Of a stretch of DNA of 7,647 bases, positions 393-6,202 are shown in pieces; position 1 is the first letter of the stretch, and the number at the start of each line of letters is the position of its first letter. Made by a program: the position numbers and the translations under genes. The notes beneath the pieces were generated by a model. The model saw only the letters and a list, made by a program, of their open reading frames with translations. It did not search any database and was not told the origin of the DNA. This DNA comes from a virus (lineage: Duplodnaviria > Heunggongvirae > Uroviricota > Caudoviricetes), in IMG/VR virus record IMGVR_UViG_2671180755_000005; one strand, given 5' to 3'.

Positions 393-1031
393 TTAAATAT
401 CTTGTTGAATTTTAAAGCATACTCCCAATATGCAAGATAGATCATCCAGCATAATTGAAGGGTAGCGAGGATTCGTGGGGACTAAAAGAATATCCGGCCC
501 TTCTATCTCCAGTTTGCGAATGACAGGCGTTGTGGTCCCTTTGGGTAAGGCAAGGACAATATTTCCTGGTTGTACGATTCGATCGGGATCAACAAAAACT
601 GTTGAACCATTTGGGATGGAAACTCCACCACCAGATGTCGACATACTGTCACTCTCTAGAACAACAGCAAAGGTATTGGCCGGGATTTCTCCGACAAGCT
701 GCACACAAGAGGTTATTGAGGAATTTTTCATATAATCACTCCAGCTTGCTGCCTGCTGAAGTGATAGTAGCGGAACCGTTTTTATCGGCGGTAAAGATAG
801 ATCAAGCGAATCACCTGTATTTAACTCTCCTCCATTAAGAAGCCAATTTTCGTTTACTTTCAATATCTTTGCCAGTGAACTTATGTAACGCGAGGACGGC
901 GCTCCTCCACCGTTCATCCATTGACTTACGGAGCCTTTTGATGCGCCAGTGGCATTGACAAGGTCTTTGCCTTTCAAGTTTAGCGCATGCATACGTTGGG
1001 TTATGCGTTCAGATATTGTTTGCTTGTTCAT
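393..1031 (-). CDS. cI: cI-like prophage repressor (N-terminal HTH, C-terminal S24 LexA-type autopeptidase domain)
   Basis: Complete 212-aa ORF. N-terminal HTH-like segment (LKGKDLVNATGASKGSVSQW), C-terminal S24 features including a Ser motif (ESDSMS) and a downstream Lys (VIRKLE). Divergent from the cro-like gene across an operator-bearing intergenic region. The ATG has no SD and abuts the operator, consistent with a leaderless PRM-type transcript. Confidence 0.9.
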   Translation of the reverse strand: MNKQTISERITQRMHALNLKGKDLVNATGASKGSVSQWMNGGGAPSSRYISSLAKILKVNENWLLNGGELNTGDSLDLSLPPIKTVPLLSLQQAASWSDYMKNSSITSCVQLVGEIPANTFAVVLESDSMSTSGGGVSIPNGSTVFVDPDRIVQPGNIVLALPKGTTTPVIRKLEIEGPDILLVPTNPRYPSIMLDDLSCILGVCFKIQQDI

Positions 1032-1110
1032 GTTTTGATTTTAAAACACAGATGGTTTTGTTTCTTGACTTTCTTTGGTTTTGATTATTAAACTTTTGGC
1101 GTTCAGTTTT
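1031..1110. promoter_or_regulatory. OR-like divergent control region: palindromic operator TGTTTT-gatttt-AAAACA (1031-1048), GGTTTTG half-site-like repeats (1054-1060, 1078-1084), candidate PR -35 TTGACT (1065-1070) with -10 TATTAA (1086-1091), candidate PRM -10 TAAAAT (minus strand, 1043-1038)
   Basis: 80-bp AT-rich spacer between divergent repressor and cro-like genes. The palindrome matches the one at 309-326. Promoter hexamers were read by eye; the PR spacer of 15 bp is suboptimal, so exact hexamers are uncertain. Confidence 0.5.
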
Positions 1111-1122
1111 ATGGAGCGACTC

Positions 1123-1365
1123 ATGAAAAAATCAGAAGTATTAGGCTATTTTGGCGGAGTTGTTAAAACAGCCGCCGCTCTAGGAACGTCAAAAACCACA
1201 GTCAGCATGTGGGGGGAAGACGTTCCGTGGAAATGGGCGTTGCTAATTCAGGCAGTCACTGCCGGGGCGCTCAAATATGAGTTACACATACCGACGGTTG
1301 TCATTCCCGATTCTGATCATAATCCGCCTTCTAACCAAGGGGGGATTCATGAAAATCAAGCATGA
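1123..1365 (+). CDS. cro: Cro-like HTH regulator (YdaS-like)
   Basis: ATG at 1123 with GGAG 6 nt upstream, 80 aa (MKKSEVLGYFGGVVKTAAALGTSKTTVSMWGEDV...). First rightward gene after the operator region. The upstream ATGs at 1075 and 1111 in the ORF track lack an SD and fall inside the promoter and operator. Confidence 0.8.
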   Translation: MKKSEVLGYFGGVVKTAAALGTSKTTVSMWGEDVPWKWALLIQAVTAGALKYELHIPTVVIPDSDHNPPSNQGGIHENQA

Positions 1366-1774
1366 ACACATCCGCATGGCGATGAATGCCTGGGCGCGTC
1401 CTGATGGCGAAAAAGTTCCGGCAGCTGGAATAACCCAGGCTTATTTTGAGTTGGGTATGACGTTTCCTGAACTGTACGACGACAGCCATCCGGAAGCCCT
1501 GGCTCGCAATACCCAGAAAATTTTCCGCTGGATAGAGAAAGACACCCCTGATGCAGTTGAAAAAATGCAGGCTCTGTTACCGGCGATCGAAAAGGCAATG
1601 CCGCCTCTGCTGGTGGCCCGTATGCGCAGTCACAGCTCTGAATATTACCGTGAGATCGTCGAACGGAGGGATCGGCTGGTGAAAGATGTGGATGATTTTG
1701 TCGCAGCGGCGATCGCCTGGGGCACCCTGACTAACAGTGGGGGTCAGCCTGGTAATGCTGTTGTCGTGCATTGA
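1349..1774 (+). CDS. YdaT-family protein (DUF1019), putative CII-like early regulator
   Basis: ATG at 1349 preceded by CCAAGGGGGG, 141 aa, overlapping the cro-like 3' end by 17 nt. Position and size match the ydaS-ydaT pair of Rac-type prophages (recalled, not searched). Confidence 0.75.
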   Translation: MKIKHEHIRMAMNAWARPDGEKVPAAGITQAYFELGMTFPELYDDSHPEALARNTQKIFRWIEKDTPDAVEKMQALLPAIEKAMPPLLVARMRSHSSEYYREIVERRDRLVKDVDDFVAAAIAWGTLTNSGGQPGNAVVVH

Positions 1775-1842
1775 CCAACAATATTCATGCCGGATTTCTT
1801 CCGGATGTTCGAGGGTAAAGTTCGGTATCAGAAGAGGTGAGT

Positions 1843-2886
1843 ATGGCTAATGCCTGGCTCAGATTGTGGCATGACATGCCAAATGACCCCAAGTGGCGAA
1901 CGATTGCCAGGGTATCAGGACAGCCAATCGCAACAGTGATGGCAGTGTATATCCATCTTCTGGTGAGCGCGTCACGAAATGTCACGACATGTCACGGCGT
2001 GTCACTACGTGGTCACATTGATGTCACGACGGAAGATTTAGCAAGTGCGCTTGATGTGACGGAAGACGTAATTGATTCAATTTTGCATGCAATGCAGGGG
2101 CGGGTTCTGGATGGTGACCTTATTTCCGGATGGGAAAAACGTCAGGTGCTGAAAGAGGACAATGGTAACGTTTCGCAAACGGCAAAATCCCCGGCAGAGC
2201 GCAAGAGAGCGCAGCGGGAGCGGGAAAAGCTGCGGAAACATAATGCTGATTGTCACGATGAGTCACGACGTGTCACGCATCTGTCACGACAAGTCACGAC
2301 AGATAAAGATACAGATAAAGATACAGATACAGAATTAAACCCCACACATAACGCGCGCGAGAGTATTCCGACCAGTGAGTCGAATGGTGCGCCGTTGCAG
2401 ACAGCCGAACCTGAATACCTGGACGGCCTGAGCGAACCGATCGGGAAATTTTCGATGACTACTGTCTGGCAGCCGTCGCCGGATTTTCGACAACGGGCAG
2501 CAGTGTGGGGTATGGCTCTGCCTGAGCCGGAATTTACACCTGCTGAGCTTGCCGCATTCCGGGATTACTGGATGGCGGAGGGGAAGGTTTTCACGCAGGT
2601 TCAGTGGGAGCAGAAATTTGCCCGCCACGTGCAGCACGTCAGGGCACAGGTAAAACCAGTCAGCAAGGGGGGAAGCCATGCAGCATCAGGTGGCACGGCA
2701 TCACGGGCAGTTCAGGAAATCCGGGCTGCACGCGAACAGTGGGAACGTGACAACGGATTTATCAGCAACGGAAACGGCCTGGAAGCTGTGGGTGCTCATG
2801 GGGGAGGTGTATTCGAACCGCTGGACTCAGAAGAACGGGGCCGCACCTTCGAAGCTCTGGATTGCCCAGATTGGTGCGATGACTGA
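1843..2886 (+). CDS. Replication initiator / replisome organiser (lambda O-like role) with internal iterons and a DnaT-like C-terminal domain
   Basis: ATG at 1843 with GAGG 5 nt upstream. The N-terminal domain is encoded across the iteron array. The C-terminal segment IGKFSMTTVWQPSPDFRQRAAVWGMALPEPEFTPAELAAFRDYWMAEGKVFTQVQWEQKFARHV closely resembles the C-terminal domain of E. coli DnaT as I recall it. Confidence 0.85.
   Translation: MANAWLRLWHDMPNDPKWRTIARVSGQPIATVMAVYIHLLVSASRNVTTCHGVSLRGHIDVTTEDLASALDVTEDVIDSILHAMQGRVLDGDLISGWEKRQVLKEDNGNVSQTAKSPAERKRAQREREKLRKHNADCHDESRRVTHLSRQVTTDKDTDKDTDTELNPTHNARESIPTSESNGAPLQTAEPEYLDGLSEPIGKFSMTTVWQPSPDFRQRAAVWGMALPEPEFTPAELAAFRDYWMAEGKVFTQVQWEQKFARHVQHVRAQVKPVSKGGSHAASGGTASRAVQEIRAAREQWERDNGFISNGNGLEAVGAHGGGVFEPLDSEERGRTFEALDCPDWCDD
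1968..2030 (+). repeat. Iteron array 1: six copies of the GTCAC(G) core phased at 10-11 bp
   Basis: GTCACG at 1971, 1981, 1991 and 2023; GTCACT at 2001; GTCACA at 2012. One helical turn apart, inside the O-like gene. Confidence 0.7.
2251..2337 (+). repeat. Iteron array 2 (five GTCACG copies, 2252-2298) followed by an AT-rich tandem repeat (GATAAAGATACA twice plus GATACAG, 2302-2332): candidate replication origin
   Basis: GTCACG at 2252, 2262, 2272, 2283 and 2293 with about 10-bp phasing, then an AT-rich repeat encoding DKDTDKDTDT. This mirrors the lambda ori layout of iterons plus an AT-rich region inside gene O. Confidence 0.7.
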
Positions 2887-3340
2887 ACAGCAAATCCGTC
2901 TGGTGTGCCGTCAGTGCATGGACCGCTGCCGGGCGGGTGAAACGTGGCCCCCGGACCTGGCTGAGTTTGTTGCGCTGATTTCGGAGAGTGGGGCAAATCC
3001 ATTTGGTCTTACGGTGGATGCCGTGATGGAAGAGTACCGGCGCTGGCGCAATGAATCCTGGCGATACGACGGGAGTGATAAATACCCGTGGCCACAGCCT
3101 GTGCTGTACCACATCTGCCTCGAAATGCGTACCAGAGGGATTGAGCGCCAGATGACGCAAGGTGAGTTAAAACGACTTGCGGAACGGCAACTGACGAAAT
3201 GGGCAAAGCATGTTGGTAACGGGATGAGTGTTCCGCCAGTGCGACGACAACTGGAAGGGGCGAAACACCCGCAAGGGCCAACGCCAATTGAACGGCTGAA
3301 ACAGGAATACGAACGCCGGAAGGCAGCTGGTTTTATTTGA
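2678..3340 (+). CDS. Lambda P-like replication protein (helicase loader)
   Basis: 220-aa ORF. Recalled similarity to lambda P: ETWPPDLAEFVALI versus RPFLPSPGQFVAWC, KYPWPQPVLYHICLEMRTRGIERQMTQGELKRLAERQL versus SYPWKSNAHYWLVTNLYQNMRANALTDAELRRKAADEL. ATG at 2678 has the same CAAGGGGGG SD-like motif as the ydaT-like gene. Alternative in-frame starts at 2798 and 2879 have weaker SDs. Confidence 0.75.
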   Translation: MQHQVARHHGQFRKSGLHANSGNVTTDLSATETAWKLWVLMGEVYSNRWTQKNGAAPSKLWIAQIGAMTEQQIRLVCRQCMDRCRAGETWPPDLAEFVALISESGANPFGLTVDAVMEEYRRWRNESWRYDGSDKYPWPQPVLYHICLEMRTRGIERQMTQGELKRLAERQLTKWAKHVGNGMSVPPVRRQLEGAKHPQGPTPIERLKQEYERRKAAGFI

Positions 3341-3373
3341 ATCTGAGAAACGATTTTGTCGGAGGAAATATTA

Positions 3374-4090
3374 ATGGAAACCGTATTTGACGCACTGAAA
3401 GCACTGAAAAAAGCCTCTTCACAGGTAGTGGCATCGCGCCTTGGAATCAGCCGCGAAGATGCTGTCAACGAACTGTGGAAACTGAAGCGCCGTGGTGAAG
3501 CGGATAACAAGGGGTCGATGTGGTGGCTGACTCAGACTGGTGAAAGTGAACCAGTGTCACCGGTACCGAAAGTGACAGCGCAAATGCTGACTGAGGCGAT
3601 TGAACATCATGGCCCACAAACGGCGGATGAGCTGGCACTGATGTTCGGGATTACCTCCCGCCGGGCGAATTCATCACTGGCCATGGCAATCAGCAAAGGG
3701 CGTCTGATTCGCGTGAATCAGGGCGGTAAATTTCGGTACTGCATACCGGGCGCTGATTTACCGGCAGAGCCGAAAGCCGCATCCATAACGGAAACGGATG
3801 GTAAAGCCTTTCCTCAGCCAGCAGGTGTTGCGTTACCAGTCGGGGAAGCGGAAACACAGGAAGAAATAAAAACTGAAAGTGTGGCGGTCACAGTGCAGTC
3901 ACAGCCGTCGTTCACCAGAAAGCATCCGGATGGTCTGATTTTACCATCGCTGCATGTGGCTAACCGCGAGCTGCGCCGGGCAAAAGGTCAGGTTCAGAAG
4001 TGGGAGCGAGTCTGCGCCGCGCTGCGGGAGCTGAACAAGTGCCGGGATATTCTCCGGGATATTACCGCCACCAGAGAACAGCAGCGGTGA
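3374..4090 (+). CDS. Hypothetical protein with two N-terminal winged-helix-like repeats and a basic, coiled-coil-like C-terminus
   Basis: ATG at 3374 with GGAGG 8 nt upstream; the ORF-track start at 3356 is a TTG with no SD. 238 aa. The two repeat segments begin around residues 1 and 70. Occupies the position that ren holds in lambda. Confidence 0.8.
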
Positions 4091-5952: not shown

Positions 5953-6070
5953 TGCTGCGGGTGCTTGAGGCTATCTGCCTCGGGCATGAACACCAACGGC
6001 AGATAGAGAAAAGCCCCAGTTAACATTACGCGTCCTGCAAGACGCTTAACATTAATCTGAGGCTCAATCC

Positions 6071-6202
6071 ATGCTGAACACATGTAGGTTAGCCTCTTAC
6101 GTGCCGAAAGGAATGGTAACGAGGAAAGACCTCTGCGAGGTGCGAATCCGAACCGGTCAGACGGAGGTCGCTGTCTTCGTAGACTACGAATCTGAGAAGT
6201 AA
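6071..6202 (+). pseudogene. hok: hok/gef-family type I toxin reading frame with in-frame loss of the transmembrane segment
   Basis: 43-codon ORF MLNTCRLASYVPKG-M-VTRKDLCEVRIRTGQTEVAVFVDYESEK. The tail matches the Gef/HokC periplasmic tail (recalled as ...VTRKDLCEVHIRTGQTEVAVFTAYESE) and the MLNTC start matches the MokC-type leader frame, but the roughly 23-codon hydrophobic segment is missing. Conserved 5' (5957-5970) and 3' (6252-6266) complementary RNA elements flank it. Confidence 0.6.

Follow-up and report, generated by a model that had tools for sequence, protein, structure and literature searches.

A probable prophage replication origin comprising two arrays of 10-bp iterons within the gene for its own initiator

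We have analyzed a stretch of 7,647 nucleotides (nt) of DNA from a tailed phage (Caudoviricetes; IMG/VR record IMGVR_UViG_2671180755_000005), referred to below as the window. This comprises the immunity and replication region of a prophage of the Rac/lambdoid type, and is 100% identical to prophages of Escherichia coli O157:H7. The genes are found in the order S24/helix-turn-helix (HTH) repressor, P22-Cro-like gene, YdaT (cII-like), the gene at 1843-2886, a lambda-P-like gene, and then DUF1627 and further genes. Our subject is the gene at 1843-2886 on the + strand. From its open reading frame (ORF) and its matches in PHROG, Pfam and RefSeq, it encodes a replication initiator of 347 amino acids (aa), with an N-terminal winged-helix domain, a basic and disordered linker and a DnaT-like C-terminal domain. 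It is placed directly after the cI, cro and cII-like (YdaT) genes and directly before the gene for the helicase loader, which is the arrangement found in lambda. The coding sequence contains two arrays of a short repeat with the core GTCACG, the second of which runs into an A-rich tract. We consider it probable that this segment is the replication origin of the prophage, lying inside the gene for its own initiator and acting by the mechanism proposed below.

The hexamer GTCACG occurs 14 times in the window, counting both strands, where 3.25 ± 2.0 copies are expected, and none of 200 shuffled sequences reached this number. Nine of the copies are on the + strand within the 328 nt between 1971 and 2298. 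The initial annotation had described eleven copies of GTCAC(G) in two arrays, phased by about one turn of the helix, and both the count and the coordinates are borne out. Array 1 (1971-2028) comprises six iterons, beginning at 1971, 1981, 1991, 2001, 2012 and 2023, while array 2 (2252-2298) comprises five, beginning at 2252, 2262, 2272, 2283 and 2293. The spacing is 10-11 bp in both arrays, every copy is on the + strand, and Tandem Repeats Finder gives a period of 10 at 1971-2016 and at 2252-2300. A single inverted core, GTGACG on the + strand and hence CGTCAC on the − strand, is found at 2056-2061, 33 bp after array 1; this was absent from the initial annotation. Where array 2 gives way to the A-rich tract (2279-2304) there is also a short inverted repeat, in which ATCTGTCACGAC and GTCACGACAGAT are complementary at 10 of 12 positions, with a 2-nt spacer.

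Array 1 encodes a loop (aa 43-62) between the predicted helices 29-45 and 63-70 of the N-terminal domain. There are four copies in this array in most relatives compared with the six found here, a difference of 21 bp or 7 aa. Array 2 encodes part of the disordered linker (aa 137-152), and together with the GATA repeat that follows it encodes the start of that linker (aa 137-164). The GTCAC copies begin at codon positions 2, 0, 1, 2, 1 and 0 in array 1, and at 1, 2, 0, 2 and 0 in array 2. One word of DNA is thus read as Ser-Arg, Val-Thr or Cys/Gly-His, and no periodic peptide results in the arrays. It had been proposed that the repeats are in frame and encode repeated VT/CH and DKDT segments. 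This fails for the 10/11-bp units, which fall in all three frames, and holds only for the GATA repeat, where a unit of 6/12 bp encodes DKDT. With a period of 10 bp the motif is read in every one of the three frames, and the repeats are accordingly elements of the DNA and not repeats of the peptide.

Selection on the arrays was analyzed at synonymous sites in 25 genes of the GTCACG class, taken from different species with a mean amino acid identity of ~62%, using conserved residues that have at least four codons. The majority codon accounts for a fraction of 0.90 within the array-encoded segments (n = 12), compared with 0.44 elsewhere in the gene (n = 42; Mann-Whitney p = 4e-6). In the arrays Ser is encoded by TCA (92-100%), Val by GTC (100%), Thr by ACG (76-100%) and Gly by GGT (100%). 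Runs of conserved nucleotides fall on the iteron cores, at 1969-1975, 1978-1986, 2011-2017, 2022-2028, 2252-2257, 2284-2288 and 2293-2297. Outside the arrays only one 4-fold degenerate codon is fully frozen. This is Val72, for which all 20 of the GTCACG-class genes with Val there use GTG, and it coincides with the inverted core at 2056-2061. The peptide encoded by the arrays changes with the DNA core, from SRNVTRGH in the GTCACG class to SNATERGRTQ in the CGAACGC class. Judged by their codons, the arrays are under selection at the level of the DNA.

We then have the evidence of related genes, which were collected from phage records, from IMG/VR and from one genome per species (63 loci, from gamma-, beta- and alpha-proteobacteria, acidobacteria and other groups). 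Nearly all of the homologous genes have an iteron-like word as the commonest hexamer of their first 620 nt, clustered at around +120 to +180 and again at around +350 to +450. The layout was scored in 66 homologous genes from proteobacteria, acidobacteria and phages, requiring the two zones to have one top hexamer in common, with two or more copies in each, and was found in 49 of them. When the top hexamer is picked separately for each zone the two agree in 34 of 63 loci, whereas shuffling of zone 2 gives 3.2 on average and 9 at most. Across the family successive cores are spaced by 10 bp in 165 cases and by 11 bp in 39. Most lineages (Escherichia, Aeromonas, Pseudomonas, Bordetella, Stenotrophomonas and others) have the core GTCACG; the cores of other lineages are GTAACG, CGAACGC, GCAACG (Ralstonia phage Firinga), GTGACG and GGAACG. 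Wherever both arrays exist, in the GTCACG, GTAACG, CGAACGC, GCAACG and GTGACG lineages, both carry the identical variant of the core. The codon position of array 1 is constant across alpha-, beta- and gamma-proteobacteria and acidobacteria, and array 2 is directly upstream of a purine tract in nearly all of the relatives. The repeats are real, they change specificity together, and they track the lineage of the protein.

The gene of Lysobacter sp. (locus L149) has its arrays at about 90-125 and 380-450 nt into the gene, with the core of array 1 on the strand opposite to that of array 2 (GCGTCAC versus GTGACGC). Its array 1 lies in a different loop, before helix 29-45, and has a 9-bp period that is in frame (VTS VTS VTN VTV). 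The inversion of the core is in keeping with duplex DNA, and not RNA or peptide, being what is recognized. Two further members, from a Serratia metagenome-assembled genome (L134) and a Pantoea sp. (L146), have the same N-terminal domain on a longer and different C-terminal part (396 and 434 aa). In these genes ACTACGTA-type repeats (YVYYV...) are found ~325-375 nt into the gene, in place of the usual arrays.

The initial annotation had placed repeats directly 3′ of the second array, and here too it was correct. Tandem Repeats Finder detects 2.9 copies of a 12-bp unit, ACAGATAAAGAT, at 2299-2333, with 95% matches and a 6-bp sub-unit; this is followed by ACAGAATTAAA, and the whole forms an A-rich tract at 2299-2345 with a bias of purines on the + strand, which encodes the linker DKDTDKDTDTE. 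The GC content of the 50 nt at 2300-2349 is 0.32, the lowest in the gene, with an AT skew of +0.53. Of all 40-mers in the gene, that at 2300-2340 is the least stable (z = 3.0), and in the whole window only one is less stable. Similar purine tracts (AGATAAAGATAAAG, AGATACAGATAC and AGAGAAGAG) are found 3′ of array 2 in almost all of the relatives, also when the GC content of the gene is 60-68%. It is exactly at the tract, moreover, that homology breaks between the N- and C-terminal modules. Phage 813R8 matches the window up to the tract, with the same N-terminal domain and arrays and an unrelated C-terminal domain. The ydaU gene of Rac-SA53 matches it from the tract onward, with a DUF1376 N-terminal domain, no GTCAC repeats and the same DnaT C-terminal domain. 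The tract is thus both a local minimum of stability and a joint between modules; we regard it as a candidate DNA-unwinding element (DUE) that would serve in addition as a flexible acidic/basic linker. The number of GATA-type hexamers in the tract ranges from 4 to 10 among E. coli relatives that are at least 91% identical (loci L009-L088 and the window), and the DKDT linker behaves in this respect as an in-frame microsatellite.

Several observations on individual relatives concern the tract and the adjoining iterons. The ydaU gene of Rac-SA53 (L003, 2520-3590, especially 2940-3030) retains a ATAAAGATACAGATA tract together with the DnaT domain, and has repeats of its own just upstream of the tract (GTTCAAACA / GTTTGAACA, CAAACAC), which might be iterons and perhaps oriJ. 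We considered YdaU of the Rac K-12 type as a member of the same system and rejected it, since the GATA tract and the DnaT domain are all that is common to them, and not the N-terminal domain or the iterons. In two E. coli prophage contigs from IMG/VR (L030 and L046) a duplication of one 10-bp iteron (ACAAGTCACG) gives six copies in array 2 (compare 2283-2298 of the window) and shifts the reading frame. The gene then stops just past array 2 (...QVTTSHDR*), leaving a protein of ~157 aa with the N-terminal domain only. Frameshift alleles of this kind may also account for many database entries of 150-165 aa, P0008 (160 aa, with 222 member sequences) being an example. Such alleles could be inactive genes of prophages, or dominant-negative binders of the iterons.

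What kind of protein is encoded? The RefSeq name of the product is 'DnaT-like ssDNA-binding domain-containing protein' (ssDNA, single-stranded DNA), and members of its cluster are named 'phage replisome organizer' by NCBI. A Pfam scan of the 347-aa product gave DnaT (PF17948) as the sole match. No match to Phage_rep_O was found, showing that this is not a homologue of lambda O; the earlier description of the gene as O-like thus stands by analogy only, its domains being replisome-organizer-like and DnaT-like. The N-terminal 150 aa match the PHROG replication-initiation families 1408 and 3729 strongly, and families 10469 and 4880 (replisome organizer / DnaD-like loader) at 6e-9 and 6e-6. The N-terminal domain scores 17.5 bits against TIGR01714 (cut-off 49.8, E = 0.0036, covering positions 1-118 of 119) and 12.8 bits against PF09681 (curated cut-off 23.3); each model is matched along its whole length, but below the cut-off. 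These scores indicate a remote relative of the replisome organizers that is not a member by the curated criteria.

The structure of the initiator was modeled with AlphaFold2 using 63 sequences. The N-terminal domain (aa 1-~100, encoded by 1843-2145), presumed from this model and from the weak TIGR01714 and PF09681 matches to be the iteron-binding module, is predicted to have helices at aa 2-14, 16-25, 29-45, 63-70 and 74-84, followed by a beta wing. The predicted local distance difference test score (pLDDT) exceeds 90 at aa 11-40 and 61-90. It drops at aa 41-60, and is 66-70 in the loop encoded by array 1. Residues 141-197 are predicted to be disordered (pLDDT <50), and the DnaT fold follows at aa ~198-270. 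Searches of the PDB with the N-terminal domain by sequence and by profile gave no match, and Foldseek returned only non-significant matches to winged-helix proteins (CRP, MarR/MepR and the N-terminal domain of plasmid RepA). The C-terminal ssDNA-binding domain (aa ~199-270, encoded by 2437-2652) is more readily assigned. It matches PF17948 at aa 203-269 (3e-17) and chains of DnaT in the PDB (6aep and 4ou6) at 1e-20 to 2e-19, and Foldseek aligns it with 4ou6 (DnaT84-153 with dT10) with a template modeling (TM) score of 0.92 and 57% identity.

Which protein reads the repeats? The C-terminal domains differ across the family, DnaT being found in only 10 of 62 members. The downstream gene also differs; among 59 relatives it is lambda-P-like in 13, a DnaB helicase in 8, a Toprim primase-helicase in 6, IstB/DnaC-like in 4 and G39P-like in 1. 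The repressors, and the hosts, differ among the E. coli, Aeromonas and Pseudomonas phages that have the GTCACG core in common. The only part of any protein that always accompanies the arrays is the N-terminal domain. Since nothing else co-occurs consistently with the arrays, we infer by elimination that the winged-helix domain is the reader of the repeats. We also sought residues that might determine specificity. The only positions outside the array-1-encoded loop to discriminate the classes were an inserted stretch (aa 108-116) and Q124/W, within the basic segment past the wing; they were not separable from phylogeny and we have made no use of them.

The loop encoded by array 1 (aa 43-62) directly precedes the helix-turn-helix, and its sequence changes with the iteron core (SRNVTRGH, SNATERGRTQ and TATQGNADATRGN). 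This raises the idea, which we consider very improbable, that site and reader may be physically coupled. Should the loop touch DNA, each change of iteron would of itself alter part of the surface used for recognition, giving a built-in route to new origin specificities. If true, such coupling would explain why array 1 has stayed inside the coding sequence of the binding domain across phyla.

We propose the following mechanism for the origin. The N-terminal winged-helix domain would bind the direct iterons phased at 10 bp, one at each turn of the helix and thus along one face of the DNA. Array 2 (2252-2298) and the adjoining A-rich tract (2299-2345) would form the core origin, oligomers of the initiator on array 2 destabilizing the purine tract. 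The DnaT-like domain would then hold the exposed single strand, or recruit the lambda-P-like loader (2879-3340), or both, and the loader would deliver the DnaB helicase of the host. Array 1 (1971-2028), ~230 bp upstream, would offer the initiator a second group of sites, accessory in role, most likely cooperating with array 2 in a wrapped or looped complex of higher order, or else tuning initiation. In its anatomy array 2 with the tract reads as a classical iteron origin at the domain junction of an initiator gene. Array 1 appears from the comparisons to be an accessory set of sites of the same specificity, which selection has retained in roughly three quarters of family members. Binding by the N-terminal domain, unwinding of the tract, recruitment of the loader and the role of array 1 are steps that we infer from the sequences. 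The suggestion made in the initial annotation, of a probable origin with unusual 10-bp iterons in two arrays within the initiator gene, is strongly supported by the conserved layout, the joint switching of the cores, the frozen synonymous sites and the AT-rich tract.

A number of results weigh against this interpretation. Array 1 is absent from L006, L124, L139, L142, L143 and L147, and displaced in L141 and L149; it is therefore not universally essential, and accessory. Relatives from cyanophages (30-37% identity) have no convincing arrays, Cy-LDV1 having only three copies of CGGAAACA, so that the architecture does not reach the most distant homologues. The distance between the arrays varies from 117 to 319 bp across the loci. 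Their helical phasing gives a Rayleigh R = 0.45-0.54 at periods of 10.0-10.2 bp, with p ~0.01-0.03 uncorrected for the scanning of periods or for shared ancestry, and is not significant at 10.5 bp. As a sign of looping this phasing is only suggestive, and the loci share ancestry. The N-terminal domain falls below the curated cut-offs for replisome organizers, leaving only remote homology to characterized origin binders. The class of the motif follows the phylogeny of the protein, so that their covariation is not independent of shared ancestry, and the putative recognition helix has no clear class-specific residues. Lastly, our search of the literature found neither a description of the origin or the family nor experimental data on them, although older subscription literature was thinly covered and an earlier mention is possible.

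It is possible, though we think it the less likely view, that only array 2 and the tract form the origin, and that array 1 is an operator-like regulatory array for the same initiator, standing outside the initiation complex. It could act in autoregulation or as a roadblock to transcription within its own gene, in titration of the initiator, or in copy control of the handcuffing type such as that exerted by the incA and incC arrays flanking repA in plasmid P1. The loss or movement of array 1 in several lineages while array 2 and the tract are nearly universal, the lack of a fixed distance and the weak phasing between the arrays, and the location of both within the transcribed initiator/loader operon would all be accommodated by such a role. 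However, a fixed codon position and frozen synonymous sites across phyla are unexpected for a dispensable regulator, and Shiga toxin (Stx) phages need extra distal iterons that are weakly bound by O for their replication (PMC7466680). That the arrays bind some other factor, whether a host protein or a phage regulator such as the repressor, and not the product of the gene that contains them, we consider very improbable. While the putative recognition helix lacks obvious class-specific residues, related elements do not all have one core, and the core is always found together with the N-terminal domain, whereas repressors, C-terminal domains, loaders and hosts (Escherichia, Aeromonas, Pseudomonas, Bordetella, Stenotrophomonas and others) vary around a constant GTCACG; nor are there clusters of GTCACG in the cI-cro operator region of the window.

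Two further explanations were weighed. The repeats might be mainly prone to slippage or recombination, constituting a contingency switch or a joint for shuffling modules. Duplication of a 10-bp iteron does put the gene out of frame in two independent contigs, GATA hexamers do vary from 4 to 10 in number among close relatives, and the tract is the exact joint of the N- and C-terminal modules. Yet the exact conservation of the cores, their joint switching and their fixed positions across phyla are left unexplained, and the dynamics of the repeats are better seen as side effects of an origin built from repeats; we consider it highly improbable that they have no role in initiation. The other possibility is that the repeats are selected as peptide motifs such as SRNVT, the periodicity of the DNA being a by-product. 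Both arrays do encode SRNVT-like peptides, which are conserved within the GTCACG class, but the 10/11-bp period places one hexamer in all three frames, and codons for Ser (6-fold degenerate), Val, Thr and Gly (4-fold) are 92-100% identical in the arrays compared with 24-68% elsewhere. Moreover, the encoded peptide is wholly different when the core differs (SRNVTRGH versus SNATERGRTQ), the peptides of both arrays are in disordered regions or regions of low pLDDT, and array 1 of L149 has its core on the opposite strand. Because the copies differ in frame, the synonymous sites are frozen and the peptide follows the DNA core, we reject this explanation, which the present analysis has effectively refuted.

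How does the proposed origin compare with known systems? Iterons in lambda are roughly 19 bp in length and dyad-symmetric. In lambdoid hybrid O proteins, the N-terminal specificity and the C-terminal partner can be recombined. Origins comprising iterons and an AT-rich tract within the initiator gene are established for lambda and the Stx phages, with four and six iterons respectively in a single array (PMC7466680). The likeness to the gene studied here is considerable. The candidate origin falls in mid-gene, where the presumed N-terminal origin-binding part of the initiator meets a C-terminal part presumed to recruit the loader; its iterons have on one side an AT-rich tract, which is unwound in lambda and the Stx phages; a gene for a P-type loader is directly downstream; and the number of iterons varies between relatives. 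In contrast to lambda, the initiator is not a homologue of O, lacking Phage_rep_O and having a DnaT-like C-terminal domain, and the iterons are direct units of 10/11 bp with a 6-bp core, in two arrays (six and five copies) ~230 bp apart, one of them in the coding sequence of the binding domain. The arrays nevertheless have what is generally looked for in an iteron origin, that is at least three direct repeats spaced by about one turn of the helix and selected as DNA.

A second comparison is with the replisome-organizer origins of the Bacillus phage SPP1 (G38P/oriL) and lactococcal phages, where an organizer-type initiator without an AAA+ domain likewise has the origin in its own gene. In SPP1, oriL lies within gene 38 and is made up of iterons and an AT-rich tract (PMC5737612, PMC6316719). 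The direct repeats (AB boxes) are beside an AT-rich DUE, with loader and helicase encoded downstream (PMC5737612, PMC6316719). The organization here is similar, with direct repeats, plus a candidate DUE rich in AT, inside an organizer-like gene and the loader gene next to it. One relative (P0110) carries a PF09524 C-terminus, the family to which G38P has been assigned (PMC5737612). The differences are that matches of the N-terminal domain to PF09681 and TIGR01714 are below cut-off, that the hosts are Gram-negative, that the iteron unit and its core are not the same, and that the second binding region of SPP1 (oriR) is kilobases away and not in the same gene.

Two separated clusters of short sites for a single initiator are the mark of bipartite origins, such as ori and crr of P4, the oriC of Bacillus subtilis and Helicobacter pylori flanking dnaA, and the origins of phage-inducible chromosomal islands (PICI). 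Two clusters of the same specificity are found here also, conserved in 49 of 66 loci with joint switching of the core. Both clusters play a part in P4 and in the bipartite oriC, where the initiator is believed to bridge them. The clusters of oriC and P4 are non-coding and 1-4.5 kb apart, unlike those described here. The PICI origins of E. coli always have two sets of iterons with an AT-rich melting region between them (PMC6092414). By contrast, the AT-rich tract here is 3′ of array 2, outside the pair of arrays, and the DNA between the arrays is ordinary coding sequence with a GC content of 0.42-0.68. A last comparison is with DnaT of E. coli (primosomal protein I). The C-terminal ssDNA-binding domain (aa ~199-270) is clearly homologous, whereas the whole protein scores 94.5 bits against the equivalog NF002770 (cut-off 201) and its N-terminal two thirds are unrelated.

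Some other features of the window may be recorded. The lambda-P-like gene (2879-3340, + strand) matches Phage_lambda_P in Pfam at 3e-15 and PHROG 109 (P-like helicase loader), and by the RefSeq boundaries its start overlaps the stop codon of the initiator gene. The repressor ORF (393-1031, − strand) encodes 212 aa with HTH and S24 peptidase domains in Pfam. At the corresponding position in O157:H7 strain TR01 (L152, 4051-4389) RefSeq gives only a 'LexA family protein' of 113 aa, compared with the 212 aa of the window ORF. A toxin-antitoxin module of the hok/sok type is found on the + strand, where sok (RF01794) matches 5959-6128 at 100.6 bits in Rfam and an ORF of 43 aa for a Hok/Gef protein overlaps it at 6071-6202; a Hok/Gef family protein is also annotated by RefSeq at the position matching this ORF. 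Scans of 900-3400 for promoters and terminators gave nothing exceeding the expectation from shuffled sequence, and the Rfam scan found no RNA family in the region of the arrays and the initiator gene.

The system is widespread. Of 5426 complete E. coli genomes, 2128 (~40%) contain the segment 1843-2345, with up to five copies per genome, and the O157:H7 strains among those matched have three copies each. The family of the N-terminal domain comprises about 1400 clusters at 50% identity. Several prophages resident in one cell with a common iteron specificity might activate, or interfere with, each other. The function of replication genes of the ydaUVW type is still given as undetermined (PMC11014345).

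An origin of iterons and an AT-rich tract inside an initiator gene is of a kind that is already in the textbooks. Relative to the literature that we found, what is new is the use of very short direct units of 10 bp, with a set of natural variants of the core; the conserved second array inside the coding sequence of the binding domain, read in three frames; and the nearly universal tract of GATA type as a joint for the exchange of modules. If our interpretation is correct, the gene would be a compact case of a coding sequence with two overlapping layers of information in three reading frames, in which an A-rich unwinding tract doubles as a flexible protein linker and as a recombination joint for module exchange. 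At least five natural classes of specificity would be predicted (GTCACG, GTAACG, CGAACGC, GCAACG and GTGACG), and these would be useful for the study of co-evolution of initiator and iteron, and of cross-talk or exclusion among co-resident prophages. There would then be a precise map of the origin for a major class of prophages of enterobacteria and Pseudomonas, including those of enterohaemorrhagic E. coli (EHEC), where the replication of prophages affects the dosage of virulence genes.

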